DNA of 64,000 nt from NCBI GenBank assembly GCA_964422035.1, contig CAYQZQ010000001.1, positions 249,013-313,012 on the forward strand, written 5' to 3'. Position 1 is the first letter of the stretch. Every line of letters begins with the position of its first letter. Below are positions 24,388 through 62,735 of this stretch, piece by piece. The position numbers and the translations under genes were made by a program. This DNA is from an uncultured Pseudomonadales bacterium (GTDB lineage Bacteria > Patescibacteriota > Microgenomatia > UBA1400 > Chazhemtobacteraceae). The notes under the pieces are model-generated. The model did no database searches and was not told the origin of the DNA. It was given only the letters and a program-made list of their open reading frames with translations.

Positions 24388-24459
24388 ATATGTATTTTAC
24401 ACATACTGTTAAATTTATCTGGCAGAAAAGGGGTTTGTAAATTACTATTTGTAACTGAT

Positions 24460-26352: not shown

Positions 26353-26404
26353 TGATCATGAATATATTAACAATCCTTGATTTTAAGGAAGATAATTAAC
26401 TGAT

Positions 26405-28282: not shown

Positions 28283-28382
28283 GCAATCTTTGATTATTTC
28301 TATAATTTAATTAAATCTATAGCGAAGTAAAAAGACACAGAGAGAGCTTTGGGCCTTTTTGGCAAACCGATGGGTAACTGAT

Positions 28383-30266: not shown

Positions 30267-30268
30267 AT

Positions 30269-42463: not shown

Positions 42464-43324
42464 TCAAGCGGTTTTGAGTTTTTTGCGCTGGGGTTTTTCA
42501 ACCGGTAGGATGTCTTGTGTTTTGTAGGTAAGAGCTTGGGAAACATGGTCTAAGTCTCTTACTAACTTTCGCATTCCCCCAGGCTCAAGCGAGGCAGCGT
42601 GGTCTGTGCCTTTCCAAGTTCGGTCTAAAGTGAAGTGTCTTTCTATGTATTCTGCTCCAAGAGTCATGGCAGCGATATCAGCTGCTATACCCAAATGGTG
42701 GCCCGAAAACCCAATGGTTTTGACTAAATGCCCGTATTGGCGCTTAAGATGTTTTATCTCTAGTAAAGAAAGAGATGAGAATGGAGCCGGATATGCAGAG
42801 GTGCAACTATACAGGATTGTACTTTTTAAACCATTATTACTTTTTAGGAACTTAATGATTAGGTCAATTTCTTCCTTGCTGGTCATTCCTAACGAGATGT
42901 GGATTTCTCCCGAGAAATTTTTCAAAATAAAAAAGAGTAATTCAAAATTAAGATTACAAGCTGATGGAATTTTAATCATGTTGGGGCTCATACTTATTAT
43001 CTCTCTTGCGGAAGTTAGGTCCCAAACCGAAGTAGAATATTCCATATCAAGTTTCTCACAATAATCTTTAAGTTGCTGATGTTCTTTTTTTGTAAACTCA
43101 AGAAACTCCCTATGTTGGCCATATGTTTCTCCATACGAATTGTAGGGCACAGGATGAGGGGAATTGTATTCTGCTTCAGATAGCAGCTCCTTAGGGTTTC
43201 TTTTTTGAAATTTGACGACATCCACATCACAAAAATCCTTGGCTATTCGAATCATTTTCTTGGCAATTTTAAAGTCTCCTTTATGATTACAACCTATTTC
43301 TGCTATGACTTTAGGTCTGTTCAT
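42464..43324 (-). CDS. neuB: NeuB-family nonulosonic acid (sialic/KDN-like) synthase, without C-terminal SAF domain
   Basis: VIAEIGCNHKGDFKIAKKMIRIAKDFCDVDVVKFQKR, then GFSGHHLGIAADIAAMTLGAEYIERHFTLDR..GTDHAASLEP. At 286 aa it is too short to include an antifreeze-like SAF domain. Confidence 0.75.
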   Translation of the reverse strand: MNRPKVIAEIGCNHKGDFKIAKKMIRIAKDFCDVDVVKFQKRNPKELLSEAEYNSPHPVPYNSYGETYGQHREFLEFTKKEHQQLKDYCEKLDMEYSTSVWDLTSAREIISMSPNMIKIPSACNLNFELLFFILKNFSGEIHISLGMTSKEEIDLIIKFLKSNNGLKSTILYSCTSAYPAPFSSLSLLEIKHLKRQYGHLVKTIGFSGHHLGIAADIAAMTLGAEYIERHFTLDRTWKGTDHAASLEPGGMRKLVRDLDHVSQALTYKTQDILPVEKPQRKKLKTA

Positions 43325-44453
43325 TGTTTTTTTGGAAAATTTCTAATATTTCTCTTATCACTCCATGCCCCCCCTTTGTGGATGTAATATAGTTAGTACT
43401 TGTTTTTACTTTGCGGTGGGCATCTAGTGGAGCAAATGAGTAACCAGACTTTTTAATTGCACCCAGATCGTTTAGGTCGTTTCCTATATAGCATATATTT
43501 TCCCAATTATAATTATGCTTCTTTAGGAAATTCTCAATTACAGCAACTTTGTTTGTAGCTTGATCAATAACCGGTATTTTTAATTTTTCAAGTCTTTTTT
43601 TAACTACAGGATTTTTTTCGCGAGAAACAACCGAAAAACCAATATTAAGCTGGGGTAACAATATATCCAGGCCTAAACTGTCAGTTTTGGAGGTAACAAT
43701 CGTTTCTTTGCCATCTTGAGATGTCAAAATTGTATTATCAGTAAAGACTCCATCAAAATTTGAGATTATATGCTTAATCTGATGAAGTTTTGAAAGCGGG
43801 TGTTTGTTTATTAACAATTTCTCGACAATTGTCCAGTCCTCAGGCTCATCAATTTCAGTTGCAGTATCATTACTCATCTTGTAGATTCCTATGTTTCCCC
43901 CTAGTCTGTTTTTGTAATTTTTAAGTATTTCATACTTGGTTATGTAAAATGCTCCATTTTCTAAAAACGAACCCTCAAAGTCTTGCCTTCTTGGTCTGTT
44001 GAATGGATCATAATTGAATGGCTTAAAGTTATGACTCCATACAAACCGTTTAAACTCAACAGCACTGAGTAATGAATCAAGATTGTTCTCATCAAAGGTT
44101 TTGAGTGCTTTGCTCAAGTCTTGTGAAGACAGAAGTGGTGATGTGGCTTGTATGGTAACTAGGACTTCAAAATCGACTTTTTCCTGAAAGTGGAGCATGA
44201 CAGACTCTGTTGATGCAGTATCTGTGGCAAACTCAGGAGGACGTTTAATTATCTTTGCACCATATTTACGGGATATCTCAGCTATTTTTTCACCGTCGGT
44301 AGACACCCAGACTTCATCAATTTGATCACACTGCTTGGCGGCTGTGATAACCCAATAACAAAGTGGCTTTCCAGCAATAGGTTTTATGTTTTTAAGCGGA
44401 ATTGATTTAGATCCTTTTCTAAGCGGTATTAGTGCGACAATCTTTTTTTTCAT
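43311..44453 (-). CDS. neuA: Acylneuraminate (nonulosonate) cytidylyltransferase NeuA fused to KdsC-like HAD phosphatase
   Basis: The N-terminus IVALIPLRKGSKSIPLKNIKPIAGKPLCYWVI...VWVSTDGEKIAEISRKYGAKII is the CMP-NeuAc synthetase signature. The C-terminus FDGVFTD...IGNDLNDLG...KGGHGVIRE is KdsC/YrbI HAD-IIIA-like. Confidence 0.75.
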   Translation of the reverse strand: MKKKIVALIPLRKGSKSIPLKNIKPIAGKPLCYWVITAAKQCDQIDEVWVSTDGEKIAEISRKYGAKIIKRPPEFATDTASTESVMLHFQEKVDFEVLVTIQATSPLLSSQDLSKALKTFDENNLDSLLSAVEFKRFVWSHNFKPFNYDPFNRPRRQDFEGSFLENGAFYITKYEILKNYKNRLGGNIGIYKMSNDTATEIDEPEDWTIVEKLLINKHPLSKLHQIKHIISNFDGVFTDNTILTSQDGKETIVTSKTDSLGLDILLPQLNIGFSVVSREKNPVVKKRLEKLKIPVIDQATNKVAVIENFLKKHNYNWENICYIGNDLNDLGAIKKSGYSFAPLDAHRKVKTSTNYITSTKGGHGVIREILEIFQKNNEQT

Positions 44454-44524
44454 AGTGGCTTATATTTTTCTGTATTATATAGCAAACTTTTGTATGAAAC
44501 AGAAAATATAGGTTGCTATTATCA

Positions 44525-45355
44525 TCAGATGATGTCTTGATAGTTTTTTTGAGGGAATGTTTCTAGCCAAGTATCATGAGATAGATTGATAATACGACTC
44601 GGATCTTTTGCTGCCCGATAATACTTATCATATTGCTCAAAAAGTTTTAAGTTATTCTTATGGAGCTTGATTATTGAATCCCACGCTTTATTTTTTGTGG
44701 AGTTCTGGCGGACGTCGTCTTTAGGGTCATAAAAGTTTTTAGCCGTTTTACCATAGTCTCTTAGGACTGTGTGATCACAACCTAATAGATAGATTGGGTT
44801 ATACCCCATGTATAAGAGTACCGGCAGCACCATAATGGGAACTGATTGGGGACTTAAGACTGGTTTTGTAATATCTGTATTAATTTTTAGTAACGAGGAT
44901 GTTATTAGATAGTATATTTCTCTATTGGGAAAAAGGTTGAATTTTTTAACTAAAGCTTGATCAGTATGACCTAGAAAGATGTTCGTTTGCGGCGGCAAGA
45001 TACCATCAGCTCTTTTCATCCACCTTACGAAGTTTTTTAATTTCAATGGGGAGTGAAAGGGAGCGAAAAAGTGGAATTTAGGTTTAATAATTTTAATATC
45101 CTTGTGAAGAAAAGCATTGCTGACAGAAAACACATCTTCGTTTTTTAGTTTTTTTAAGTTGTACTTTTTAATACTGGGACCTGTAGCCAGTAGAAAGGCT
45201 TGCTTGTTTTTACCCTTGCCTTTTAGTTTGGTGTTCTTAGCCGTAAGGTGTTGGTGTCTCAAATAAGAGTAGTTTTTAGCCAAGATAACCTTAAGAGGTG
45301 ATGGCAGAACTTGACTGAGTGCTGTAATCGATAGGGGTATTTTTTTATTTAACAT
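44525..45355 (-). CDS. DUF115/MptE-fold (Maf-like) protein; candidate nonulosonic-acid transferase
   Basis: LLATGPSIKKYNLKKLKNEDVFSVSNAF and LLGCDHT are reminiscent of the DUF115 GPSL...N and G.D motifs. It is adjacent to neuA/neuB. Confidence 0.35.
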   Translation of the reverse strand: MLNKKIPLSITALSQVLPSPLKVILAKNYSYLRHQHLTAKNTKLKGKGKNKQAFLLATGPSIKKYNLKKLKNEDVFSVSNAFLHKDIKIIKPKFHFFAPFHSPLKLKNFVRWMKRADGILPPQTNIFLGHTDQALVKKFNLFPNREIYYLITSSLLKINTDITKPVLSPQSVPIMVLPVLLYMGYNPIYLLGCDHTVLRDYGKTAKNFYDPKDDVRQNSTKNKAWDSIIKLHKNNLKLFEQYDKYYRAAKDPSRIINLSHDTWLETFPQKNYQDII

Positions 45356-51583: not shown

Positions 51584-52969
51584 TTATTCTATCACTGAGG
51601 CTTTTAATTTATTGTTTGCGTCTAAGACAGTTATTAGAACTGAAGTTCCAGGGTCACGAGGAAAATCTGTCGCGGGGTACTTGTGTTGGAGATAGTCCCA
51701 CCAAATGGCGATGTTACCTTTAATTTCTTCTTTGTATCGAGGTGAAGGAGGTTGTTGAAAAGAGATGTTATACCGGCTAGGGAAAGATGGGTGAAGTTGT
51801 TTAATAAATGATTGATGATTGGTAAAGAGGTGTGGGTGAGCGTAGTTAGGATTGATGGTCCTGATGGCGTGCGTAACAAGGAACGGATTAATGTGTCCGG
51901 AGCCCGAAAGAAGAGAGATAGTAAATGGAATAAAAGAAAGAAGGGCTAGTCGCTTCAATTTGGTAGTCTTCTTGAAATACAAAATGAATATATCTAAGAA
52001 ATAGTAAAGGTAGAGTGCAAAAATAGGTAGATAGTAAACATATTGACGAGGAGTAAAAAAAAATGATTGAGAACGGGTAACTAAGAATGAAACCGGGCCC
52101 AGAATAATCCAGCCTAAAGAGGTTAGAGTAGCCTTGAAGCTGGCTTTGCGAGAGTTGAGATAATGATAGAGACTTAAGACTGAACCAGTAATAATTAGAG
52201 GGATAAAGTTTCGGTAGTATTCCCAAAACAATGAGAAAGATGTATCAAAGTTCCAAGAATGAACATGGCGAGCATAAAAAACGGACACCAAAGAAGCAAT
52301 TAAGACACTGATTATAGGCTTACTTACCCTGAACTCTGAATGAAATATAAGTTGAGAAAATAGAAGTGTAGATAACAGGGTGGCAAACTGAAAAATACTG
52401 GCCGTAGAGGTTGCGGCCAGAGCCAAAAGGGTAATCGTAAAAAGGATTAATGGTTTATTGTTGAGCTCAATAACGTAAAGCAGTAAGAACGAAAGAGAGA
52501 TCCATAAGCTGTATGGTCGCATCTGACTGGCATATTGAACCATAGCAGGATTAAAGAGAAATAAGGGCAGGCTGAGGGTGAAAAACAAGAAGTATTTAAG
52601 TTTTTTGTAGAGATAGATTAGATAGGTAATGATTCCAATCGTAAAGTGAGTTGCTAAGAGATAGTAAAGACGAAAGTACTGATGGGGTGCGAGAAACAAA
52701 TATTTTAGTGGTTTACGTATTAAGTAGAAAATCCGAAGGATAAAGTAATCAAGAGGGGCCGGGCTACCTTGATAAGCAACTCCTAACAAGATCGATTTTA
52801 AACTAGAAGTAGATATAGTTCTATTGAAACTCGCTAATTCATCTATCCAAAACAATTTTTGATTGGCAAGCTCAAACCAATTGAGAGAGAAGAGTGTAAG
52901 TTGGGCAAAAATCAGCAAAAGACAAAATAGATAGAGGGTTTTTTTATTTTTTAGGTTCATTACCAGCAA
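51584..52969 (-). CDS. GT-C fold glycosyltransferase candidate (DE first-loop motif)
   Basis: LFWIDELASFNRT follows TM1. About 12 TM helices. Confidence 0.5.
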   Translation of the reverse strand: MLVMNLKNKKTLYLFCLLLIFAQLTLFSLNWFELANQKLFWIDELASFNRTISTSSLKSILLGVAYQGSPAPLDYFILRIFYLIRKPLKYLFLAPHQYFRLYYLLATHFTIGIITYLIYLYKKLKYFLFFTLSLPLFLFNPAMVQYASQMRPYSLWISLSFLLLYVIELNNKPLILFTITLLALAATSTASIFQFATLLSTLLFSQLIFHSEFRVSKPIISVLIASLVSVFYARHVHSWNFDTSFSLFWEYYRNFIPLIITGSVLSLYHYLNSRKASFKATLTSLGWIILGPVSFLVTRSQSFFFTPRQYVYYLPIFALYLYYFLDIFILYFKKTTKLKRLALLSFIPFTISLLSGSGHINPFLVTHAIRTINPNYAHPHLFTNHQSFIKQLHPSFPSRYNISFQQPPSPRYKEEIKGNIAIWWDYLQHKYPATDFPRDPGTSVLITVLDANNKLKASVIE

Positions 52970-54356
52970 TTATATAGACTGATTGACCAAAGGGCGGTTT
53001 TATGCTCTTTTCAACCAATTTCATTAGAGGAACAATCATTTGGTCAAAGATAGAAATCTGACCTGAGAGTGTTTGACTCGATGGAGTTGTGCACAAAAGC
53101 TTGTTTAGGTACCAACCAAAGGCACCGATGATATTGAAGTACTTTGATTTGATAATTTTGAAATCATTTTTTTTGAGCAGCTGAGAAAGTGAGTGATGGT
53201 TGTATCTTCTGTAATGACTGACGCTTTTATCCCATCGGCTGTAAAGGCGTTGGTGAGCAGGAACAAAGATAAATATTTTACCCCGTGATTTTAGGATTTT
53301 TTTAATATTTTGAATCATCTGCTCTTGGTTTTTTACATGCTCAAGAGTATTGATAAGAACTACTAAGTCATATTTGCGTGGCAATTCTTTTGCCTGATCG
53401 ACTTGTGATAGATCAAGAATCCATGGCTCGACATTGCGATGTGACTTGAATTTATTTTTTAACTGCTGATGATATTGCTCATCTACTTCTAGGATGTCTA
53501 AGTGTTGTGCGCGGGGAGCAATCAAAGAAGAAAAAGTGCCTATTCCCCCGCCAATTTCAAGGACATTCCCCTTAATGTAGTGACAGAATTGACTAAATAT
53601 CCAGTTGTTATAGTTCTCGGCTTGGGAAACTTTGTGTAAACCGGTAACTAGCTGGTTGGGTGGAAAAAACTTATACTTTAAAAGGGTTTGGATGGCTACT
53701 AAGCCGTCTTTCCAATTGATCTTTTTGCCCTGTTTAACACTTCGCGGTTGGTAGCTGATAGGAAGCTCAATTATCTTTTCACCTCTTAGACCAAGTTTGG
53801 CTGTTACTTCGGGGCAAAACTCAAATCCAGTACACTCAAGATTTAGATTTTTTAGAAGATCAGTTTTTATGAGCTTGTAGCAGGTCGGCTCGTCGGTTAT
53901 TTCAAGACCAAAGAGAAGATTAGCCAGTTGGGTGACAAATTTGCCCCCAAGATAGAAGAAGCGACTTGAATAAATTCCCCTTTGAGCATATTTAAAGCGA
54001 GAACCGTAGACGACATTGGTTTTATCTTTTAAGACTGGGTAGATCAGAACTTCAAGATCCTTGGGGTTGTATTCCAAATCTGCATCCTGAATAACTGTAA
54101 AACTTCCGGTGGCTTCTTCTAGACCTGTTCGAATAGCACTACCTTTTCCTTTATTTATGTCATGGAATTTCTTTATGAGTGGTTTTGTAGTCTTAACTTT
54201 TTTGATTATTTGAGTCGAACCATCAGTTGAACCATCATCCACCATAATAATTTGCACATCGAGATCTATGGAGTCAACTTTAGAGACAAGTTCTTTGATG
54301 GTGTTTTTCTCATTATACACAGGGATTATAACAGATAGTATGGGAGGTTGATTCAC
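52944..54356 (-). CDS. Bifunctional GT2 glycosyltransferase (N-terminal) and class I SAM methyltransferase (C-terminal)
   Basis: N-terminal LSVIIPVYNEKNTIKELVSKV...IMVDDGSTDGS...DADL. C-terminal VLEIGGGIGTFSSLIAPRAQHLDILEVD. Confidence 0.75.
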   Translation of the reverse strand: MNQPPILSVIIPVYNEKNTIKELVSKVDSIDLDVQIIMVDDGSTDGSTQIIKKVKTTKPLIKKFHDINKGKGSAIRTGLEEATGSFTVIQDADLEYNPKDLEVLIYPVLKDKTNVVYGSRFKYAQRGIYSSRFFYLGGKFVTQLANLLFGLEITDEPTCYKLIKTDLLKNLNLECTGFEFCPEVTAKLGLRGEKIIELPISYQPRSVKQGKKINWKDGLVAIQTLLKYKFFPPNQLVTGLHKVSQAENYNNWIFSQFCHYIKGNVLEIGGGIGTFSSLIAPRAQHLDILEVDEQYHQQLKNKFKSHRNVEPWILDLSQVDQAKELPRKYDLVVLINTLEHVKNQEQMIQNIKKILKSRGKIFIFVPAHQRLYSRWDKSVSHYRRYNHHSLSQLLKKNDFKIIKSKYFNIIGAFGWYLNKLLCTTPSSQTLSGQISIFDQMIVPLMKLVEKSIKPPFGQSVYIIAGNEPKK

Positions 54357-54433
54357 AAGTAACCCGTTTAATTTATAAATAATTGAGCTTCATGACAGCA
54401 TATCATAGCTCTAAAAAGACAGGGTCTTTACTA

Positions 54434-55768
54434 CTATGAAAGCTTGTTAGAATTGATCAATTGATGACGCTTAATATTGTAGGTTATTTTTTTCCAAAGA
54501 GTGCGTAACTTTTGGAAGATTTTACCCACAACATCAGGTCTAACTTTGGAGACAAGATGTCTGGCTGGTTTGGTGCCCAAGAGCAGAAATAAGCTGCTGA
54601 TAACAATCTCCATAAGATAACGAGAGAAAGGGAAGCCTTTGATTTGATAGCCATAATCTGGAACAGGGAAGCCTAATTTTTTAAGAAACTGGATACGAAT
54701 AAAAGCTCCACGTTTTTTTAAATCATAACCATGTGAGTGCATCTTGATGGCTTTGTCTTTTGAGATATTTTTTAAGCTGATAACACCTTGGTGCTGCATC
54801 TTTTCAAGAATATTTTGGCCCTTTTGAGACCTGACTATGACCATGGAAAAACCCTTACCTTTTTGTTCATATTTGGGAGCCCATGCATCACCGACTGAGA
54901 TGTCAGTAAACTCATTAGTCAGATCAGTAGAAAGAAGGCTACGTTTGACAATGTGAAATGGAATCAGGTAGTTAGCATAGAACTTAGGTAGTTTAATGAC
55001 TTCTCCCGATTGGAGGACGATTTTGGTGTATCCAGGCCACTTTCCTTCTCGGAAAGACAGACTTTTTATTTTTTTATGATCATCGATACCATAGGACTTA
55101 AGTAGGTATTTGATTGAACTGAAGTGCAAGGTATTGCCGTAGAAGGGACCAATTATGTATTTGATTTTTTTAACGACCTCATCATTGACCATTTGCAATT
55201 TGCGAATTGAATGGACTTGAGGAGGAATACCAACAAGGGCGAGGTTTTCCTGAGAATCAGTTACATGAGAGAGGGCCTGATTATTGGAGCTTAATAGATA
55301 TTTACTACCAGCCGCAGAGATGATTTGCTCGGGGGTGGTAGCAATAAAAGGTCTGGTAAGCCATGGTTTCTTTTCATCCATGCCTAAAACCACTGCTCCA
55401 GAGATTTTTTTGTTTTGCAAAAGCCAAAGGAGAACCTGGGTAATGATTCCTCCGCTACTAGCCAGTCGTCTAATTTTTTGGTTGGTGGTAAAACCTATGT
55501 GTAGTGACCGGTAATGCCCCAGATACTGATCTCTTTTTGGAGAATTGTAAACAAATTGATTTAAACGCGGAAAGTTAACATTTTGAGCTGGACAGCCAGT
55601 CCAGATTCTTTTTGCCAGGTCGTCTTCTAAATCGATTGGTATCTTGGGTAGATAATTACCCTCCTTATCTTTAAATTTAATTTTCCCCTGAGAGAGCCCT
55701 ATGCAAGTACCACAACGGTTACATAAACCGTTTTTGGTAACGTCAATGAGTTTATTTTTTGCAGACAT
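54434..55768 (-). CDS. FrhB/FdhB-like protein (coenzyme F420 hydrogenase beta-subunit family) with N-terminal Cys cluster
   Basis: CNRCGTCIGL...WTGCPAQN (four Cys, consistent with a 4Fe-4S site), followed by a long FrhB_C-like region. This family recurs in polysaccharide loci next to pyruvyl/acyl-modifying enzymes. Confidence 0.45.
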   Translation of the reverse strand: MSAKNKLIDVTKNGLCNRCGTCIGLSQGKIKFKDKEGNYLPKIPIDLEDDLAKRIWTGCPAQNVNFPRLNQFVYNSPKRDQYLGHYRSLHIGFTTNQKIRRLASSGGIITQVLLWLLQNKKISGAVVLGMDEKKPWLTRPFIATTPEQIISAAGSKYLLSSNNQALSHVTDSQENLALVGIPPQVHSIRKLQMVNDEVVKKIKYIIGPFYGNTLHFSSIKYLLKSYGIDDHKKIKSLSFREGKWPGYTKIVLQSGEVIKLPKFYANYLIPFHIVKRSLLSTDLTNEFTDISVGDAWAPKYEQKGKGFSMVIVRSQKGQNILEKMQHQGVISLKNISKDKAIKMHSHGYDLKKRGAFIRIQFLKKLGFPVPDYGYQIKGFPFSRYLMEIVISSLFLLLGTKPARHLVSKVRPDVVGKIFQKLRTLWKKITYNIKRHQLINSNKLS

Positions 55769-56462
55769 AGAATTGGCGAATACCTAATTCCGAGATGAAT
55801 GTATTCTGAAAGCGTTTGATAATTTTTTCTGCCAATGACTTGATAACGGTAGGACCTAAGGGAAGCAATAGGGTACCCTTGTGGCTAATAAGCTTCCATC
55901 CCGACTTTTCCAGCAAATCTTTGACTTGTCTTGAGGTCAGGAAGCGATGAGGGCCTTCACCGTGACCGCCATAAAAGAAGGTATAGACCCTGTAGGGGAT
56001 TTCTGCTGTGGCCGGTGGGCAACTTAAGACCAGAGTTGCATCATCCTTGGCCACTCGATGCAGTTGTTTAAGAAATTCCAAAGGGCGGGAGACATGCTCT
56101 AGTGTTTCCAGGCTGACGATGACATCAAAGCTTTGATCTTCAAGGGGGAGTTGAGAATAAGTGGAGATTTTGACCTGCTTGGCTTTAGGATACAGGCGTT
56201 TGGCTTGGGAGATTAACTTTGAGGATATTTCTGCATTAACTAGTTGGCAGGAAGGGCAGGCTTTTTTTATGAAGGGGTAAAGACCGCTATCACGACTGGA
56301 TATATTCAGTATCTTTTGATTTTTTTTGAGATCGAGAAGTTCTAGAGTTTGGTGGAAGCGTTGATTGTGAGCTTGGTCGACTTTTTGGTTTTCTCTTATA
56401 TAAATGTCGGCTACGCTATTCCAAAACTTTTCTACTTGTTTGTCTGTCCAAGTATTTTGCAT
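55752..56462 (-). CDS. Class I SAM-dependent methyltransferase
   Basis: KILNISSRDSGLY... and DVIVSLETLEHV (motif II/III). The MTase fold signature is weak at motif I. Confidence 0.55.
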   Translation of the reverse strand: MQNTWTDKQVEKFWNSVADIYIRENQKVDQAHNQRFHQTLELLDLKKNQKILNISSRDSGLYPFIKKACPSCQLVNAEISSKLISQAKRLYPKAKQVKISTYSQLPLEDQSFDVIVSLETLEHVSRPLEFLKQLHRVAKDDATLVLSCPPATAEIPYRVYTFFYGGHGEGPHRFLTSRQVKDLLEKSGWKLISHKGTLLLPLGPTVIKSLAEKIIKRFQNTFISELGIRQFYVCKK

Positions 56463-56463
56463 G

Positions 56464-57330
56464 TTAAGTGGATTTTTGTTTTAAATTAAGCATCGATATT
56501 TGGTCTGCCAACAACCCAAAGAAGAAGAGCAGCATGCCTAAAACAGTGATTAGAATAGAGCTATTGGGGACTCTGGGACCGATGATAAAGCCATAGAGAG
56601 CCCATGATAATCCTAAAAAAGTAGTAGTTAAACTGGCTGGAAAAAAAAGCTTCAAAGGGTTAAAAAGCATGATAATACGCATAATTAAGAGTAAAGTTTT
56701 GCTGCCGTCTTTGATTAAGTTCAAATTACTGGGACGACCTTGTCTTTTTTTGGTTTTGATGGGAAAGGTGGCTACATCGTGACCCAGTTTATAAAAAGCA
56801 AAAGTGGAGGTGGTAGAAAATGAAAACCCATTAGGCATTAAGTGAAGTAAGTTGAAGATCTTTTGGCGGTGAAAACCCCGAAAACCAGAGTTAAAGTCTG
56901 GTAGATCCTGTTCTAGAAGATACTGGCCAAGTTTTTTCAAAACTGCTTTGCCAAGCAACCTAGATTGATGTTGAGAGCTTTCGTCGGTTCTCTCTCCTAT
57001 GACCAAGGGGTGCTTGGGTAAAAGTTTTTTCAGCTGATCTAGATATTTTATTGAGTGCTGACCGTCTGAATCCATGGTTATGATAAACTCAGTTTGGCTG
57101 TATCGAATACCGGTTTTTAGGGCAGCTCCATAGCCTTTGTTTTGAGTATGAGAGATGATCTTGATAGGGTATTTTTTAACTATTTGTGACGTTTTATCTG
57201 TAGAACCGTCATTGACAACTAGAACGTCCATTTGTTGGTGGATATTGTTTTTAATGAGCGAGTCCAAGACAGAGTTTATTGACTCGGCTTCATTGTATGC
57301 AGGAATGATGAGAGTGGTATTAGTTTTCAC
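56464..57330 (-). CDS. Polyprenyl-phosphate sugar synthase (GT2; GtrB/ArnC/DPM1-like) with C-terminal TM helices
   Basis: TLIIPAYNEAESINSVLDSL...VVNDGSTDKTSQIVKKY. Two C-terminal TM helices (LLLIMRIIMLF... and LLFFFGLLADQ) end in the ADQ/LL tail typical of GtrB-type enzymes. Confidence 0.7.
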   Translation of the reverse strand: MKTNTTLIIPAYNEAESINSVLDSLIKNNIHQQMDVLVVNDGSTDKTSQIVKKYPIKIISHTQNKGYGAALKTGIRYSQTEFIITMDSDGQHSIKYLDQLKKLLPKHPLVIGERTDESSQHQSRLLGKAVLKKLGQYLLEQDLPDFNSGFRGFHRQKIFNLLHLMPNGFSFSTTSTFAFYKLGHDVATFPIKTKKRQGRPSNLNLIKDGSKTLLLIMRIIMLFNPLKLFFPASLTTTFLGLSWALYGFIIGPRVPNSSILITVLGMLLFFFGLLADQISMLNLKQKST

Positions 57331-58585
57331 TTTTTGAAATTTTGCTTGCTAATTGATTGATAGATGATGTGACAACCGGAAAAGTAAAGCTGGTGGCTAC
57401 AATTAAGGGATATAAACTAATAAAATGTCTTTTCATGGCATTATATAAAAGAGCTTGCCACGAATTAAGAGGAAGAAAGCGCAAACGACTGGCTAAAGCC
57501 AGAGCAAACCAGGTTAAAGAATAAAATAAGGTGACAACTGAAATAGAATTAAATAATTTTTTAAACTTGGTTAATGACTGAACAATAAGGCTAGTTAAAA
57601 AAAACAACGCCAAACCACCAGATAAAGAAGGAAGAAAATAGTGAAATAAAGCTTTTGCAGTTGCTAAAATCATAAAAGGGAGATCATTAACAATAGTGGG
57701 AACATTTTTGAATGAGTTAACTTGAGTGCTTGAGAGGTCAAGATGATATTTTTTAAAGTACCCCCAAGGAAGGGTGAAAAGGGTATAGAACAGAATAATG
57801 ATAAATAAGTGGCGGTAGTTTTTAGTTCTTACAAATTTATAAGCTATCAATATAAGGCTTGTTAGAAAAAAGGGTAAATTGGCTGGCCGAGTCCAGGCTG
57901 CAAAGGAAAGCATAGCACTAGTAAGGGTTAAGGAAGATAAAGAAGAGTCTGTAAGATAGTTAGCCAGATATAGTCCGGACAAAGAAAGATAAATCATATA
58001 AGGAAAATTTGTGTAAGCAATGCGACTTTGAAAAAAAGCCCAAGGAATAGAGACAACAAAAAGACAGGCTAAAAGAGCGGTGAGAGATTGAGAACGCCTT
58101 TTTATATAGGAAAAGAAGACCAACAAAAAACCAATTAAAAGGAAACTATAGAAAACCTTAGGATTTGAAAAGCCTAGAATGTAAAGGGCAGTGTGAGCCA
58201 ACGAGGTGTACAAAGGATAGCTGCCATGATAGCTGTTACCTATTCCTGTGATGTCTCGGTGATGAACGAAAAGTTTGGCTCTAAAATCATACATTGTGAG
58301 AGTATCGAAAAAATAAGGAGGGTAGTACCAATTGAAAATAAAGTTAAGTATGACGACAGATAATACAAGTGCGAGAAGTAATATAGAAAATGAATTGAAT
58401 TTCAGCTTAATCTTGTTTTTTTTGATGAGTTTAACCAGCATTAGTGATAGTAGTGAGGCTGGCAAAAAACTTAATAATAAACTGGTTAAATTGATGGGAA
58501 TGTTTAAAAAGACATTAGACAAGAACCAAAAAAAGGTGGTAAATGGAAAAATGGAAATGATACCTATACCAATAGCTTCAATCAT
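57320..58585 (-). CDS. Polytopic membrane protein (GT-C-like candidate)
   Basis: 421 aa with about 11 TM. Confidence 0.45.
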   Translation of the reverse strand: MIEAIGIGIISIFPFTTFFWFLSNVFLNIPINLTSLLLSFLPASLLSLMLVKLIKKNKIKLKFNSFSILLLALVLSVVILNFIFNWYYPPYFFDTLTMYDFRAKLFVHHRDITGIGNSYHGSYPLYTSLAHTALYILGFSNPKVFYSFLLIGFLLVFFSYIKRRSQSLTALLACLFVVSIPWAFFQSRIAYTNFPYMIYLSLSGLYLANYLTDSSLSSLTLTSAMLSFAAWTRPANLPFFLTSLILIAYKFVRTKNYRHLFIIILFYTLFTLPWGYFKKYHLDLSSTQVNSFKNVPTIVNDLPFMILATAKALFHYFLPSLSGGLALFFLTSLIVQSLTKFKKLFNSISVVTLFYSLTWFALALASRLRFLPLNSWQALLYNAMKRHFISLYPLIVATSFTFPVVTSSINQLASKISKSEN

Positions 58586-59108
58586 TTTGCAGGTTGATAA
58601 TTCCCCATGGTGGTTTTTCCTGTATTAGAGTCACTTGGCTGGGAGGATAGTCCTTGCGGGGCCAGAGATACTGGTCTTGTTCAAGTCCGGAGACTTCTCC
58701 CCAAATCAAAAAAACGTGAGTGGCAGATGCAGGAGGAGGATGATTGACTGACTCAGGGCGAACAAGTTTGCGAGGATATAAAAAGTAGTTCATATATAAC
58801 CCGGAGGAGGTGTTAGGCCAAGCTGGGCCAGAGGGTGGCAGAGCAATGACTGCATCTGGGGGGAGATTATTTTGAGCGTATTGAATGAAATCAAACAAGG
58901 GCGAGCCTAATTTAGACTTTAGGCGTTGGTCATATGGCAAACGAGAGTTATTAATGATGAATTTTAATTCTTCTTTATCTGAAATAAGAAAGTAGAAGTT
59001 GATAACCAGGGAAATAGCAAGGATAAACAAGACGATAGGGTGTTTTTTAGTCAAAAGTAATGGCTGAATTTTAAAAATATATTGTCCATGTGATTTGTCT
59101 TTGGCCAA
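58578..59108 (-). CDS. Hypothetical single-pass membrane protein with Pro/Trp-rich extracytoplasmic domain
   Basis: 176 aa. TM at IVLFILAISLVINFYFLI. No known domain. Confidence 0.45.
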   Translation of the reverse strand: MAKDKSHGQYIFKIQPLLLTKKHPIVLFILAISLVINFYFLISDKEELKFIINNSRLPYDQRLKSKLGSPLFDFIQYAQNNLPPDAVIALPPSGPAWPNTSSGLYMNYFLYPRKLVRPESVNHPPPASATHVFLIWGEVSGLEQDQYLWPRKDYPPSQVTLIQEKPPWGIINLQND

Positions 59109-60507
59109 TTATCTGCTGATTTTCTAAATTGTTGTTAAAGACTGCTTTGAGAAAACTTATCAGGCCTTGGTTAATTATAGGTGATGAACGGAAGATTGAC
59201 ACTTTTTCTTTGTTTTTGGTGTATTTTGAAAGTTTTTTAGAGTCTAAATGTTGAAACTTATTCCAAATTATTATCATTTCATTTTCCTTACCTTGAGGAT
59301 TTTTTTGCCAAATATAATATGCTTGAGGGCTAAGATCATAAAATAGATCTAGATGTTGACCGGTCTCTTTAAACCACTCCTGGGCGTTGATGTCTCGATT
59401 GAAATTAAAATAGATTGTGGTTTGATTATTTGAGTATCGGGCTAATGTTGAGATCATTTCGCTGTTGGCTTTTTCTCGAGCAAAATAACCGGAGACAAAA
59501 ATGAAAGAGTTGAGAGATGAATAAAAAAGGGAAAAAATAATAAATGGAACCCAGATCAGTTTTGTTAAAAGAGAGCCCTGTCTGCAGGCTTGAAGTAGGT
59601 AAAAAGCTATAATGATACTTAAATGCAAAACAACTGGGAATAGATAGCGTAGTAAAGAGTGGGGCCAAAATGAATGAAGAATTAGATATGAGAAAGCTGC
59701 TATGAAATTCAAGATTACTAACGGAGGTATTGTTTTATTCTTAAAATAGTCTTTGAAAATTAATATGCCAGAAATAGCAAGTAAAAAGAGATGACCTGAG
59801 TTAAGGAGATGGATAAGATTTTTTTTGAAAGTATTAAGTATGAGACCAAGATTAAAAGTTGTGTTAGCAGCATAGCCTTTTTGTGTGAGAGCAAAAGAAA
59901 GCAATAGAAGAATGCTAGAGGCAACTAGATTAAAAATTAAGTAAATAGATTGTTTTTTAGTGAGTTTATCTTTGATTAGAACAGCCGCCATTAAAAAGAC
60001 TGGAAGCAGATAAAAACTGGTTTCTTTGCTAGTAAATAATAAAAATGAGGAGAGAAGAGCAGGCCAGAGCTTGTTTTTATAGGCAAACCAAAGGGATAGA
60101 ACAAGCCAAAGAACCAATAAAGTTTCCTGAGTTCCTAACCTCCAGAAATTGATGACTGTGCCGGGAAAAATAAAAGTTAACAAAATCGACAGAGTAGCAA
60201 AGTACTTATTTTTAAAGTTTTTAAAAAATTTAAAAAGCAGGACAATTGTGACAAGTAAAATCAATAACTGAAAAGCGTGGTGAGCAAAAACGGAAGTGCC
60301 AAATAGCTTATATTTGAATTTGTGGAATAGCCAATATGATGGTCGTAGTCTGCCCAGGTTTTTATCAATAAAAAAAAGATTAGACAGTTTTTGACTCCGG
60401 AGATTGGTAAGAATTTGACCATCATCGATAAGTGACCATGGGAGAAGAAGTGAGGGGAGATAGAAGGAAATTATAATTGTAATTAGAATAAAGAAAAGAA
60501 AAAGCAT
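59071..60507 (-). CDS. GT-C fold glycosyltransferase candidate (DD first-loop motif)
   Basis: SLIDDGQILTNL follows TM1. About 12 TM helices. Confidence 0.5.
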   Translation of the reverse strand: MLFLFFILITIIISFYLPSLLLPWSLIDDGQILTNLRSQKLSNLFFIDKNLGRLRPSYWLFHKFKYKLFGTSVFAHHAFQLLILLVTIVLLFKFFKNFKNKYFATLSILLTFIFPGTVINFWRLGTQETLLVLWLVLSLWFAYKNKLWPALLSSFLLFTSKETSFYLLPVFLMAAVLIKDKLTKKQSIYLIFNLVASSILLLLSFALTQKGYAANTTFNLGLILNTFKKNLIHLLNSGHLFLLAISGILIFKDYFKNKTIPPLVILNFIAAFSYLILHSFWPHSLLRYLFPVVLHLSIIIAFYLLQACRQGSLLTKLIWVPFIIFSLFYSSLNSFIFVSGYFAREKANSEMISTLARYSNNQTTIYFNFNRDINAQEWFKETGQHLDLFYDLSPQAYYIWQKNPQGKENEMIIIWNKFQHLDSKKLSKYTKNKEKVSIFRSSPIINQGLISFLKAVFNNNLENQQIIGQRQITWTIYF

Positions 60508-60518
60508 CGTGAATGGAT

Positions 60519-62735
60519 TTAGAGCTTATGTAGGTGCCAAATGTATGAAGATGAATAGGTGGGAATCAGAGGAGTGCCTGACTCAACAAGCGTTTTTAAG
60601 CTGTCTTTAAGAATAGGATTATACTGCTGAGTCTTTGTTTCAATTTTTTTGAGCAAAACATCATCGCTGAGAGAGCTAATTGGGATTTGATTGTCAGGGA
60701 AAGACCAAGTTGCTAAAAATTCTACATCGCTTTTTTCATTAAATAGGCTGGTTTTAAGATCTGACCTATTATGAAATAGTCGAAAATGCCTCTCTGCTTC
60801 ACTAATCCACTCATAATGATTAGGGTTCTTTTCAAAATTAAAGTATAAGGTTGAATTTTTGGGCATACTTTTTACTGCGGTATCGACCATCACGGCATTA
60901 GCTTTCTCGCGGGCGACAAAGTCTGTAGCAATATTTAATGACTGAATGGTGTTGGTAAAAATAAAATTTGCCCAATAGTAAACAAAGACACCCAGTAGTA
61001 TTACAAAAATTGGATTCTTTAATGAATACTTAATTTGTCGATAAGTTTCGAAAGCGATGAATAGACCAATGGCAGGGAGAACAGGTGTTAAATAACGCCC
61101 CAGAGCTAATTTCCAAGGAAGCAAGATCAGAAAGGAGGCTGACAGCCAAACCAGAGATATCAGTGAAATTTTAAGTCTATCCTTTTTAATTGCTGCAATC
61201 ACTAAAGAAATACCTGACAGTTGAAGTAGTCTGGACAGCCAGGAGGAATCAAGTTGGAGCTTGTATTCTTGAAAAGTCTTAAACCAAGTCTGAAGATCAA
61301 CTTTAAAATTTGATGAATAATTTTGCTTGCCATAATTGAAAAATCTAGCAATAAAAATGTATGCTATGCCAATTAGTGAAGTTAAAAATAATTGTTGCCA
61401 TGTCTTCTCGTTTTCTTTGTCAATAAGTAACCCCAGTAGTAATAAAGGGACAACAAATATTGCTGTTTCTTTGGTTAAAATCGCAGACAAGATCAAAAGT
61501 GGGCCAACAATCTTTCCCAGCCATTTTTTTTTAAACTCAAAAGCTAGCACTATGCCTAACAACAAAAATAAAGTCATGGGTATTTCTTGAGAGACAAGTC
61601 GGTAAAAGTTCTCAACATTGCGATAAAAAAGCAAAGCTGGCAAAGAAGCTAGGATTCCTACAAATTTGGATTTGGTTAGTTTATAAGATATGTAATAAAC
61701 AAGTGATATTAATGATGCTGAGAATATGATTCTCAAAATATGGAGAGTAAATGAATTATTACCTACAAACCAGTACTGTATAAACATGAACAGCCAAAAA
61801 ATGGGCCTGCTTCTACCAGTCCTAGATTCTAATAATAACCAGTCAAGTTCTCTAAAATTTAAATTAGTAATTTTGGACACAAATTCATTTGACTTGTCGA
61901 TTACTAAACCATCATCGATTAATGAAAAAGGTAGCTGAAGAGAAGATTTCATTATAAGCAATGAAATGATTACTAAAGCAAGCATTGGCCAGTACTGAAA
62001 AATTGATTTACGATGCCAGGATGAGAGATTTTCTCGAAGAAAATAGAATTTTAGTTTGACTAAATCTTTTAATGTTTTTAAGCCTCTGACAAATATTGAT
62101 GACCTAGACTGTCTTTTTTCTATAACTGATATTGGCAACTCTCCTATTTCAAAATTATTCTTTTGAGCTCTAAGCAATAGCTCTGTATCAAAAAGTTCTT
62201 TTGTCATCCGCGATTGTTTAATCAGCGGCAAAAATTTCTTTCTCTTGAGAATTTTTATCCCATGAGTATCAGATATTTTTAGGCCGAAAAGCATTTTCAA
62301 GATTGAACTAAACACTAGTGTTGCAAAACGACGATGAATTGACCTTGTATCTTGGGATTCCGGATCCAACTTGCTACCGACTACCACGTCATATTTATTC
62401 ATTTTGAGAATAGCTTGATCAATAAAATTTGTATCATAGTAATCAAGATCAAATAGTACTAAGTAGTCTCCATCTGCAGCTAAGAAGCCCTTTTTAACAG
62501 CCAGACCATAATCCGGATTGGGAGAGGTAAGCACTTGGACATCCTTGGTGCGCTTTGCATATTCCTGGGCTAGTTGTAGGGTATTGTCACTGCTTCCATT
62601 CTCTGAGACTATCAGTTGCCAGTTGAAAGAGGTTTTGTTTAGTTTCCAAACTAGTTCGGGTAAGAACTTAAAAAGGTAATTCTCTTCATTGTGGATGGGA
62701 ATTATTATGGAAATTTTGGGAGTATCCTGGTTCAT
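60519..62735 (-). CDS. Fusion protein: N-terminal GT2 (polyprenyl-phosphate sugar synthase-like) plus C-terminal polytopic GT-C-like domain
   Basis: N-terminal ISIIIPIHNEENYLFKFLPEL...VSENGSSDNTLQLAQEY...FDLDY (GT-A). After about 240 aa come at least 11 TM helices, with SLIDDGLVIDKSNEF after the first TM. This is the same LIDDG motif as in 59071..60507. Confidence 0.65.
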   Translation of the reverse strand: MNQDTPKISIIIPIHNEENYLFKFLPELVWKLNKTSFNWQLIVSENGSSDNTLQLAQEYAKRTKDVQVLTSPNPDYGLAVKKGFLAADGDYLVLFDLDYYDTNFIDQAILKMNKYDVVVGSKLDPESQDTRSIHRRFATLVFSSILKMLFGLKISDTHGIKILKRKKFLPLIKQSRMTKELFDTELLLRAQKNNFEIGELPISVIEKRQSRSSIFVRGLKTLKDLVKLKFYFLRENLSSWHRKSIFQYWPMLALVIISLLIMKSSLQLPFSLIDDGLVIDKSNEFVSKITNLNFRELDWLLLESRTGRSRPIFWLFMFIQYWFVGNNSFTLHILRIIFSASLISLVYYISYKLTKSKFVGILASLPALLFYRNVENFYRLVSQEIPMTLFLLLGIVLAFEFKKKWLGKIVGPLLILSAILTKETAIFVVPLLLLGLLIDKENEKTWQQLFLTSLIGIAYIFIARFFNYGKQNYSSNFKVDLQTWFKTFQEYKLQLDSSWLSRLLQLSGISLVIAAIKKDRLKISLISLVWLSASFLILLPWKLALGRYLTPVLPAIGLFIAFETYRQIKYSLKNPIFVILLGVFVYYWANFIFTNTIQSLNIATDFVAREKANAVMVDTAVKSMPKNSTLYFNFEKNPNHYEWISEAERHFRLFHNRSDLKTSLFNEKSDVEFLATWSFPDNQIPISSLSDDVLLKKIETKTQQYNPILKDSLKTLVESGTPLIPTYSSSYIWHLHKL

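Follow-up and report, generated by a model that had tools for sequence, protein, structure and literature searches.

Does a single polypeptide in this locus hold both an enzyme that charges a polyprenyl lipid with a sugar and the membrane-embedded transferase that consumes the product, or have two neighboring genes merely been joined by error? The first-pass annotation of the window (the whole stretch of DNA analyzed, 64 kb) proposed such a fusion and the channeling of the lipid-linked sugar from one active site to the next. We addressed the reality of the fusion, the identity of its two parts, the genes around it, and finally the function that the parts could serve together.

Integrity and distribution of the fused gene

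The gene lies on the minus strand, as an uninterrupted open reading frame for 738 aa that begins with ATG at 62735 and extends to 60519 (Table 1). All the strings singled out at first pass fall within this frame: ISIIIPIHNEENY at aa 8-20, VSENGSSDNT at aa 43-52, FDLDY at aa 95-99 and LIDDG at aa 272-276. The databases contain an identical protein, encoded on an NCBI/Logan contig of 725,544 bp. Separate assemblies provided six full-length relatives (P0002-P0007; 727-737 aa, 42-45% identity, 96-99% coverage), and consequently the join is not an artefact of sequencing or assembly.

The first-pass annotation raised the possibility that a frameshift had joined two genes, and one related locus, L006, does carry the halves as neighboring, separate genes. 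However, the L006 halves are separated by a whole methyltransferase gene and show no broken frame; the fusion in the window is therefore not a one-base error of that layout. The GT2 protein of L006 comprises 234 aa and has no membrane helix, and the GT-C protein there comprises 530 aa. Moreover, at least 12 proteins have the fused architecture; they derive from different samples and assemblers (NCBI, JGI, ENA, Logan), yet the junction lies at the same position and a helix-linker-helix arrangement is conserved across it. We therefore assign hardly any probability to a fusion created by frameshift or mis-assembly from two genes lying side by side. The fusion is real and conserved.

It is also uncommon, as had been supposed. 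Approximately 10,600 cluster representatives matched the GT-C profile in an exhaustive HMMER search, to which a word-indexed search with the C-domain profile added two proteins only, and a GT2 domain is present on 7 of the 150 closest of these representatives. A rough neighbor-joining tree of the GT-C family distributes the fused forms over two or more branches that lie well apart. In other proteins, members of this GT2 subfamily are joined to a methyltransferase or to a domain of YdjC, a family of sugar deacetylases; such fusions fit a lipid-linked monosaccharide that undergoes modification prior to its use, as happens with ArnC and ArnD. Further members are fused to a second GT2 domain (P0009) or carry just a hydrophobic tail of ∼170 aa (P0008, P0011). 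A scan of species-representative genomes returned solely an unrelated Desulfobacteraceae GT2. From the gene content and the 725-kb contig, a CPR/Patescibacteria origin may be guessed at, no more. To our knowledge, GT2-GT-C architectures listed in domain databases are uncharacterized. A literature search of incomplete coverage, and hence weak evidence of novelty, yielded no earlier account of such a fusion.

Table 1. Features of the fusion gene and of its neighbors (positions in the window; residue numbers refer to the encoded protein).
Feature	Positions	Strand	Basis or remark
GT2-GT-C fusion gene, 738 aa	60519..62735	minus	ORF list; stop codon 60519-60521
GT-A (GT2) domain, polyprenyl-phosphate glycosyltransferase type, presumed cytoplasmic, aa 1-∼212	62100..62735	minus	PF00535, profile, Foldseek
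DXD-type metal/donor motif D96-L-D98-Y-Y-D101	62433..62450	minus	Conservation and alignment
Putative acceptor-loop segment, aa 122-139 (K122, R135, T139)	62319..62372	minus	hhalign against PfDPMS
Basic amphipathic helix and short variable linker, aa 213-244; presumed juxtamembrane helix	62004..62099	minus	Model and hydrophobic moment
First GT-C membrane helix, aa 245-267	61935..62003	minus	C-domain model helix 14-32, pLDDT >95; hydropathy peak aa 244-262
D274-D275 after first membrane helix (motif LPFSLIDD); candidate catalytic acidic pair	61911..61916	minus	Conservation
Polytopic GT-C membrane domain, aa 245-∼623	60867..62003	minus	AF2 model and Foldseek
C-terminal alpha/beta domain, aa ∼624-738; presumed extracytoplasmic	60522..60866	minus	C-domain model residues 394-502, strands and helices
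Stand-alone GT-C paralog, 478 aa	59071..60507	minus	11 nt downstream of fusion; 28% identity over 394 aa, E 3e-27
SAM-dependent methyltransferase, 282 aa	62771..63619	minus	Directly upstream, same orientation; PF13489 E 4.6e-25
Companion pair: 176-aa single-helix protein (58578-59108) and 421-aa polytopic protein (57320-58585)	57320..59108	minus	Conserved synteny
Stand-alone AglJ/GtrB-like GT2, 288 aa, two C-terminal membrane helices	56464..57330	minus	NCBIfam
GT2-methyltransferase fusion, 470 aa	52944..54356	minus	Pfam and NCBIfam

The two domains and their conserved residues

Several searches support the view, already taken at first pass, that the N-terminal domain is a GT-A domain of the DPM1/GtrB kind. 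PF00535 (Glycos_transf_2) matched aa 9-166 with 72.6 bits against a cut-off of 23.3 (E 4.7e-20), and the full-length model, in which strands and helices alternate in this part, retrieved predominantly GT-A structures. The best 25 Foldseek matches of the full-length model in the PDB were exclusively ArnC, DPMS and GtrB (E 1.6e-10 to 1.2e-6), with ArnC at the top (1.6e-10); the margin of this ranking comes partly from the trailing helices, in a query model of pLDDT 66. When a profile of the domain was compared with PDB sequences, GtrB (4e-14), PfDPMS (4.5e-13) and ArnC (5e-12, aligned over positions 2-222) were recovered. Among NCBIfam models, the alignment spanned aa ∼5-210 of the fusion for the dolichyl/undecaprenyl-phosphate transferases AglJ, DPhHxTase, PgfS and ArnC, and was limited to the first ∼100-145 residues for the remaining GT2 models. 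Since all NCBIfam matches, including those of the named equivalog models (ArnC, AglJ, PgfS, PpgS, DPhHxTase), scored far under their curated cut-offs (PgfS, the best, with 40.2 bits vs. 500; ArnC with 35.9 vs. 529), the domain is an ortholog of no named enzyme. Sequence similarity to solved polyprenyl-phosphate glycosyltransferases is confined to the N-terminal, nucleotide-binding half. Profiles of the C-terminal half (aa 62-245 or 108-245) gave zero matches in the PDB, and the polyprenyl-phosphate assignment therefore rests on the fold ranking and on the residue mapping by hhalign.

In the extended DXD motif of known enzymes, DADLQ[DNH], the first Asp is the proposed catalytic base, and the third residue and the Gln bind the metal (PMC12690121). 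The corresponding D96-L-D98-Y-Y-D101 of the fusion aligns to 89-DADLQH-94 of PfDPMS and 94-DADLQD-99 of GtrB, with Tyr, Phe or Trp in the position of the metal-binding Gln. All three aspartates are invariant across the 7 fused proteins; D98 is invariant in an 11-sequence GT2 profile as well, and position 96 is Asn in the YdjC-fused group. In a comparison of profile A4 with a PfDPMS fragment by hhalign, a sequence alignment alone, K122 fell on R117, R135 on R131 and T139 on S135, the residues that position dolichyl phosphate in PfDPMS (PMC12690121) and correspond to R128, R137 and S141 of ArnC. K122 does not vary, and neither does R135 within the fused clade; at position 139, 6 of 7 fused proteins have Ser. 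Judged from this alignment, the GT2 domain appears to keep counterparts of the acceptor-phosphate ligands of DPMS.

The GT2 module lacks anchor helices of its own: its chain passes without a break into the GT-C module, and in L006 the split-form protein stops after the amphipathic helix. In polyprenyl-phosphate glycosyltransferases, juxtamembrane or interface helices lead into a C-terminal membrane anchor, which consists of two helices in GtrB and ArnC and of four in PfDPMS; human DPM1 is anchored by DPM3. The full-length model places a helix at aa 214-237 (pLDDT 55-76), and aa 217-234 have the highest 18-residue hydrophobic moment within the first 270 residues (0.55). In the alignment of the fused proteins, length varies solely in the helix and linker of aa 213-244, which is where the stand-alone GT2 of L006 stops.

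For residues ∼245-738 the AF2 model reached a pLDDT of 95.5 and a pTM of 0.93, and its best 16 Foldseek matches in the PDB were all GT-C enzymes (ALG12, STT3, ArnT, PglB, AglB, AftA, AftD, Emb, Pmt), with ALG12 first (2.5e-6) and ArnT (5ezm) at E 3.6e-5. Query-normalized TM-scores were 0.40-0.52 for the ten best and went down to 0.29 for the weakest. The proposed GT-C nature of the C-terminal part is thereby confirmed. As to the two folded domains expected from structure prediction, both folds were found; the full-length model, of moderate quality, establishes neither how they pack nor the structure of the juxtamembrane region. The domain models suggested at first pass also divided, in that PF00535 exceeded its cut-off and PF13231 (PMT_2), at aa 313-461, remained below its gathering threshold of 26.1, scoring 21.6 bits with the full protein and 22.5 with the isolated C-domain. 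PMT_2 is the sole Pfam family that touches the C-terminal domain, and it matched 11 of 75 sampled representatives of the GT-C family at E≤1e-3, so that this branch is largely unannotated. The GT-C family of the fusion is a divergent sister group of PMT_2 and, by the Pfam rule, no member of it.

D274 and D275 lie 7 residues past the helix at 249-267, are invariant in the 7 fused proteins and occur in at least 90% of the 150 family representatives; one or more acidic residues in the first extracytoplasmic loop are typically conserved in the GT-C superfamily. Also conserved across the family are G307, R308, R310, P311, W314, E375, E384, K422, E423, Y473, P540, W541 and Y548, and, in the C-terminal alpha/beta domain, N633, E642, R657, D659 and W733. 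By analogy with the architecture of ArnT and PglB, the alpha/beta domain would lie outside the cell. A count of membrane helices from the model's helix list and the positive-inside rule was discarded, several of the listed helices being clearly not membrane-spanning.

Genes around the fusion

The operon (52944-62735) comprises three DPM1/AglJ-like GT2 modules and three GT-C-type membrane proteins. The gene immediately downstream of the fusion encodes a true paralog of its C-terminal part, with LIDDG at aa 25-29 and a PMT_2 score of 24.9 bits, under the cut-off. The occurrence of this loop motif in both proteins, noticed at first pass, accordingly reflects homology rather than chance. A paralog adjoins the fusion in the related loci L002, L003, L004 and L014 as well. 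On the other side, the methyltransferase has a 53%-identical ortholog in L006, where it is the gene between the split GT2 and GT-C genes, and a methyltransferase is next to the fusion in L004, L013 and L014. The companion pair has homologs downstream of the fusion, or of the split GT-C, in L002, L003, L004, L006 and L013. The L006 relative of the 421-aa protein matched PF13231 (PMT_2) with 30.3 bits; the 421-aa protein of the window had no Pfam match, and its homolog search was uninformative. Its membership in the GT-C family of the fusion was considered and rejected (profile comparison probability 2.6%, no link).

The stand-alone GT2 of the operon matched TIGR04182 (AglJ) over aa 6-284 (E 2e-32) and also PpgS (4e-22); it has hydrophobic helices at aa 212-230 and 257-275, and its PDB sequence matches include PfDPMS and GtrB. 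Within the window, the closest relative of the GT2 domain of the fusion is that of the GT2-methyltransferase fusion (hhalign E 1.5e-17 over aa 3-207), which has orthologs in L002, L003 (60% identity) and L014. The operon adjoins genes for a Wzm/Wzt ABC-transporter and several GT4 genes.

The GtrA family (PF04138) was not found among the scanned ORFs of at least 120 aa in the 64-kb window, and the sole recognized flippase-type gene there is a Wzx-type Polysacc_synt gene (32146-33384) ∼27 kb from the fusion. Likewise, no flippase-type Pfam family occurs among the fusion-flanking genes listed for L002, L003, L004, L013 and L014.

Proposed function, alternatives and known relatives

On balance we lean, with modest assurance, towards a single-chain protein that performs the first and the last of the three steps in a “three-component” system of extracytoplasmic glycosylation. 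According to this proposal the N-terminal GT-A domain, held at the membrane by the amphipathic helix and the first GT-C membrane helix, would transfer the sugar of a nucleotide sugar to polyprenyl phosphate on the cytoplasmic face. The resulting polyprenyl-phosphate-sugar, perhaps first methylated by the product of the adjacent methyltransferase gene, would then reach the outer leaflet. There the GT-C module would take it as donor, using D274/D275 in the first outer loop, and glycosylate a cell-envelope acceptor, either a glycopolymer or a protein. The open reading frame, both folds, the conserved motifs, the repeated occurrence of the fusion, its split counterpart and the conserved gene neighborhood are established, and both enzymatic activities are predicted; the fusion, the synteny of the split form and the conserved residues point indirectly to a donor-maker and its consumer.

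By the topology of known GT-C enzymes and polyprenyl-phosphate glycosyltransferases, the two active sites should be on opposite faces of the membrane, and the lipid-linked sugar must therefore still be flipped. With the sites so placed and no GtrA-type flippase in the window, our results do not support the channeling put forward at first pass; by itself, the fusion could not conduct the sugar through the membrane. The fusion would supply a helix-less GT2 with a membrane anchor, fix the ratio of synthase and consumer at 1:1 and keep them together, and it is more safely explained by anchoring, stoichiometry and co-localization than by channeling. We consider it quite improbable, though worth stating, that the fusion is self-sufficient, with the GT-C membrane domain, alone or as an oligomer, also giving the lipid-linked sugar its path through the bilayer. 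This would explain a 64-kb island, and five related loci around the fusion, without a GtrA-type flippase and, if true, would provide a single-chain model for the long-unresolved flipping of lipid-phosphate-sugars.

The two domains could also belong to one pathway in another relationship, as in the scheme proposed for lactococcal WpsA/B - WpsC - WpsJ, on which this alternative is modeled: the GT2 domain would extend or cap a lipid-linked oligosaccharide at the cytoplasmic face of the membrane, and the GT-C domain would polymerize the exported, finished glycan or ligate it to its acceptor. Just upstream of the fusion, related loci contain a GacI/GacJ-like GT2 (218-220 aa) paired with a DUF2304 gene, together with further GT2 genes, an arrangement that fits such a pathway and matches the initiating GacI/GacJ-type pair described in PMC10821137. 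These pairs, and not the fusion, could be the real lipid-phosphate-sugar synthases. No DUF2304 gene was seen in the window, however. The ABC-transporter and GT4 genes beside the operon also count in its favor, the GT2-GT2 protein P0009 fits chain building too, and in its acceptor half the GT2 domain detectably matches no sequence of a solved polyprenyl-phosphate glycosyltransferase. Against this, the best structural neighbors of the domain act exclusively on polyprenyl phosphate itself, and the counterparts of the three phosphate-positioning residues of PfDPMS are conserved. We regard the oligosaccharide pathway as rather unlikely, but as an alternative to be taken seriously.

Much less probable is that just one module is active, the GT-C part being a mere anchor or scaffold, or the GT2 part a non-catalytic regulator or nucleotide-sugar sensor of an active GT-C. 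Anchoring is a real need, given that the split-form GT2 has no membrane helix, and in P0008 and P0011 a short hydrophobic tail is all that the GT2 carries. Nevertheless, a 490-residue GT-C fold with a pLDDT of 95 and polar residues conserved family-wide far exceeds what an anchor needs. Furthermore, relatives of only 42-45% identity retain without exception the DxDxxD aspartates, K122 and R135 in the GT2 domain and the DD, GRxRP and KE motifs in the GT-C domain.

Returning to the proposed synthase and consumer, several known systems invite comparison. In three-component systems a GT2 on the cytoplasmic face makes the polyprenyl-phosphate-sugar, a polytopic GT-C transfers the sugar outside the membrane, and the genes cluster with those of the glycan being modified. 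Examples are GtrA/GtrB/Gtr* of enterobacterial phages and CsbB/YfhO, GtlA/GtlB/GtcA and PgfS/PgfM of Gram-positive bacteria. Papers on such systems include PMC7389260, PMC11127046 and PMC12041528. Their synthase and GT-C are separate proteins, a flippase of the GtrA/Wzx type takes part, and the synthase, which is tetrameric in GtrB and ArnC, brings its own two membrane helices, whereas here there is one chain, a GT2 without helices of its own, and no GtrA found in the window. ArnC and ArnT (undecaprenyl-phosphate-L-Ara4FN synthase and lipid A transferase) follow the same logic of a sugar that is made inside, modified, flipped and used by a GT-C, and they are the best match of the N-domain and among the best of the C-domain, respectively. 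However, each is encoded by its own gene, ArnD, ArnE and ArnF act between the two, the fusion is just 12-18% identical to them, and DADLQ is altered in it. PfDPMS/DPM1 shares with the fusion the GT-A fold, a DXD motif and the counterparts of R117, R131 and S135, and the Pmt/ALG-type users of its product resemble the C-domain, which is touched by PMT_2 and has ALG12 as its top fold match; unlike the fusion, PfDPMS is anchored by its own four membrane helices, and its product is used by separate proteins.

Natural fusions of such synthases include Ppm1 of M. tuberculosis (an Lnt-like domain and Ppm synthase), GtrB-GtrA, and archaeal AglD-type GT2 enzymes with a polytopic C-terminus. GacJ-GacI fusions are a further case (PMC10821137). 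As here, the synthase shares its chain with a membrane partner that belongs to its pathway, but that partner is an activator, an acyltransferase-like or flippase-like domain, or a domain without a known role, and not a GT-C predicted to consume the product.

Natural fusion is strong evidence that two proteins work together, and this one links a GT-C branch of ∼10,600 cluster representatives to a specific DPM1/GtrB-like synthase subfamily. As a one-gene, 1:1 construct it could serve to study how the synthesis of a lipid-linked sugar on one membrane face is coupled to its use on the other, and it also bears on the unsolved flipping of the intermediate. The practical gain is modest, consisting of a refined annotation and suggested experiments; the fusion is a variant of a well-known glycosylation scheme and adds no new kind of chemistry.

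Rfam returned zero RNA families in the window. Glycan genes fill the 64 kb almost throughout and, in a contig of only 725 kb, this suggests that the organism invests heavily in the decoration of its surface.

A fused gene and its relatives

The fusion is encoded by an unbroken open reading frame with an ATG start (62735 to 60519, minus strand; 738 aa), and the sequence strings quoted in the first-pass annotation all occur in it, in the relative positions reported. The gene sits in a tightly packed run of same-strand genes, 35 nt from the end of the methyltransferase gene upstream and 11 nt from the start of the gene downstream (59071..60507).

The same annotation had raised the possibility that a frameshift joined two genes. 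Such a frameshift or assembly artefact is excluded for practical purposes, because the fused architecture recurs in separate assemblies, among the representatives of a profile search and at another metagenomic locus. The databases contain an identical 738-aa protein, on an NCBI/Logan contig of 725,544 bp, and six more fused proteins of full length (727-737 aa), with 42-45% identity at 96-99% coverage, come from different assemblies (JGI, ENA and Logan). These align with the fusion end to end, length varying only in the short stretch that links a basic amphipathic helix to the first membrane helix. When 1.84 billion cluster representatives were searched exhaustively with HMMER, the C-domain profile added four fused representatives (P0023, P0024, P0044 and P0104), each with PF00535 in an N-terminal extension of ~235-255 residues, and a truncated metagenome contig (L005) holds both halves in a single frame.

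The fusion is uncommon, as had been proposed. At E<=1e-3 the profile matched 10,582 representatives, a number that falls to 346 at E<=1e-30; only seven of the 150 best-matching carry the GT2 extension, and the rest stand alone, with lengths of roughly 450-600 aa. In an approximate neighbour-joining tree built on the membrane core, the fusion clusters with P0023, P0024 and two of the full-length relatives (P0002 and P0003), whereas P0044 and P0104 lie far off, among stand-alone proteins. Yet the GT2 domains of these two belong to the same subfamily as that of the fusion (34-36% identity, same motifs), which points either to repeated fusion or to one old fusion that was later split many times; so crude a tree does not discriminate between the two.

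The annotation had also asked about split orthologs, and one related locus, L006, has the halves as separate genes with a methyltransferase between them. Its 234-aa GT2 shares 54% identity with aa 7-235 of the fusion and ends where the linker starts, its methyltransferase shares 53% with the methyltransferase upstream of the fusion in the window, and its 530-aa stand-alone GT-C (27% identity over 422 aa to the C-domain) is nearer to the fusion than to the stand-alone paralog in the window. Halves fused in some loci and separate in L006 are the classic pattern of functionally linked proteins.

The two modules

The N-terminal domain matches the Pfam GT2 family well over threshold. The NCBIfam models AglJ, DPhHxTase, PgfS and ArnC, which represent enzymes glycosylating dolichyl or undecaprenyl phosphate, aligned over aa ~5-210, and models of other GT2 enzymes to the first 100-145 residues only. 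Every NCBIfam score was far under its curated cut-off, so none of the named enzymes is an ortholog of the domain. In the PDB, a profile built from the domain together with its relatives retrieved GtrB (4e-14), dolichyl-phosphate-mannose synthase (PfDPMS, 4.5e-13) and ArnC (5e-12, covering positions 2-222); with the first 61 or 107 residues left out, profiles found no match there. The full-length AF2 model is of moderate confidence (pLDDT 66; GT-A part mostly 70-90), and its 25 best PDB neighbours in a fold search are all ArnC, DPMS or GtrB, which upholds the DPM1/GtrB likeness first proposed. In an hhalign alignment with a PfDPMS fragment, D96/D98 fall on the DXD aspartates, and K122, R135 and T139 would correspond to R117, R131 and S135, which position dolichyl phosphate (roles from the ArnC structure paper, PMC12690121). 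The position of T139 is Ser in six of seven fused proteins, and the metal-binding Gln of DADLQ is replaced by Tyr/Phe/Trp in them. This substitution and the empty PDB searches with the shortened profiles both weaken the assignment.

The motifs ENGSxD, [FN][LIV]D[YF], [ST]DTHG and FDTE mark this GT2 subfamily (P0008-P0017; L007-L012), members of which elsewhere have a YdjC-family domain, a methyltransferase, a second GT2 or a ~170-aa hydrophobic tail as their fusion partner. The subfamily is a modular unit whose partners, GT-C among them, differ between organisms.

The C-terminal domain scores 21.6 bits against Pfam PMT_2, below the 26.1 threshold. PMT_2 reached only 11 of 75 sampled family members at E<=1e-3, and the GT-C family is therefore largely unannotated. 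The branch is also a large one: at E<=1e-3 it takes in about 10,600 cluster representatives (alignments A3, A6). An AF2 model built on a 150-sequence alignment reached pLDDT 95.5 and pTM 0.93; the 16 PDB structures nearest to it are without exception GT-C enzymes (ALG12, STT3, ArnT, PglB, AglB, AftA, AftD, Emb, Pmt), bearing out the suspected GT-C fold. The DD pair, seven residues past the first membrane helix, does not vary within the fused clade and occurs in at least 90% of 150 representatives; GRxRPxxW, the two glutamates of ENxYRLxxQE, the KE of TKET and PW...Y are conserved likewise. The protein ends in an alpha/beta domain of about 115 residues that would lie outside the cell. The LIDDG motif is, as noted at first reading, common to the fusion and the downstream gene, whose product aligns from IDDG onwards with the C-terminal two-thirds of the fusion (28% identity, 394 residues, E 3e-27) and, judged by this alignment, is a genuine paralog.

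A proposed function and its rival

We favor, by a modest degree, the reading that the fusion is a GtrB/GT-C-type pair within one chain. Polyprenyl-phosphate-sugar would be produced at the inner membrane face and flipped to the outer leaflet by some agent, and the GT-C module would pass the sugar to an envelope acceptor. The scanned ORFs of the 64-kb window (at least 120 aa each) include no GtrA-family protein. Fusion would give the GT2 module its missing membrane anchor, fixed stoichiometry and proximity; channelling of the lipid-linked sugar across the membrane does not follow from it.

Alternatively, the GT2 domain could extend a lipid-linked oligosaccharide for later ligation or polymerisation by the GT-C, along the lines of the lactococcal Wps scheme (PMC10821137). 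This alternative is favored by the GacI/GacJ-like pairs of related loci, in which a GT2 (~218-257 aa) stands beside a DUF2304 protein; the window showed no DUF2304 gene. However, the fold ranking of the GT2 domain and its conserved phosphate-binding positions speak against oligosaccharide extension, which we consider rather unlikely.

Known polyprenyl-phosphate synthase fusions have activators, flippase-like proteins or unrelated domains as partners, and a full-text literature search found no description of a GT2-GT-C fusion; we therefore regard it as a new variant of a known glycosylation scheme. Its main value is that it ties two protein families together and offers an experimental handle on coupling and flipping.

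Gene context

The window consists almost entirely of glycan biosynthesis genes: three further PMT_2 GT-Cs, Wzy_C, Wzx, Wzm/Wzt ABC-transporter genes, an initiating Bac_transf, NeuB, a cytidylyltransferase, many GT4 and GT2, and several methyltransferases. Counts over 1-64000 are at least 6 GT-C-type, about 10 GT2, about 9 GT4 and at least 7 methyltransferases. Since the contig recorded with the identical protein is only 725,544 bp long, glycan genes take up a very large part of what is a small genome. The closest window relatives of the fusion's GT2 are the GT2 half of a GT2-methyltransferase fusion, which is the nearest, and an AglJ/GtrB-like GT2, the remaining GT2 genes being more distant.

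In seven loci a cassette recurs around the fusion: methyltransferase, GT-C paralog, single-helix protein (~160-340 aa), polytopic protein (~415-466 aa) and GT2-methyltransferase fusion, the last of which may make and methylate a lipid-linked sugar. The pair of single-helix (176-342 aa) and polytopic (415-466 aa) proteins occurs in one or two copies per locus, and its window copies had no Pfam match. Because PMT_2 recognises a 440-aa relative of the polytopic protein in L006 (30.3 bits), this partner is probably one more divergent GT-C, accompanied by an accessory subunit, and the DPM1/AglJ-like GT2 modules and the GT-C-type proteins of operon 52944-62735 thus probably number three each.

Features of the window and of related loci
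Feature	Position	Strand	Size	Remark
Four tandem paralogs	window 24361-32149	+	625-663 aa each	N-terminal hydrophobic region and sulfatase/phosphodiesterase domain
NeuB-family synthase, cytidylyltransferase-HAD fusion, MptE-like protein	window 42464-45355	-		grouped, beside Wzm/Wzt genes
GT2-methyltransferase fusion	window 52944-54356	-	470 aa	GT2 half AglJ/PpgS-like
GT2-methyltransferase ortholog	L003 10692-12101			60% identical, syntenic
FrhB/FdhB-like (F420 hydrogenase beta subunit family)	window 54434-55768	-		between methyltransferase and GT2-methyltransferase fusion, within glycosylation operon
AglJ/GtrB-like GT2	window 56464-57330			
Single-helix and polytopic pair	window 57320-59108	-		travels with fusion
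Single-helix and polytopic pair	L006 2877-5159 and 9116-11348; L013 4369-9153			travels with fusion
GacI/GacJ-like pairs	L002 6330-7315; L003 1128-2110; L004 2885-3906; L014 106-1207			few genes upstream of fusion

The LtaS- or EptA-like architecture of the four tandem sulfatase-domain proteins suggests several phospho-substituent or polyol-phosphate transferases, and the NeuB cluster suggests that a nonulosonic (sialic-acid-like) sugar is synthesised and transferred.
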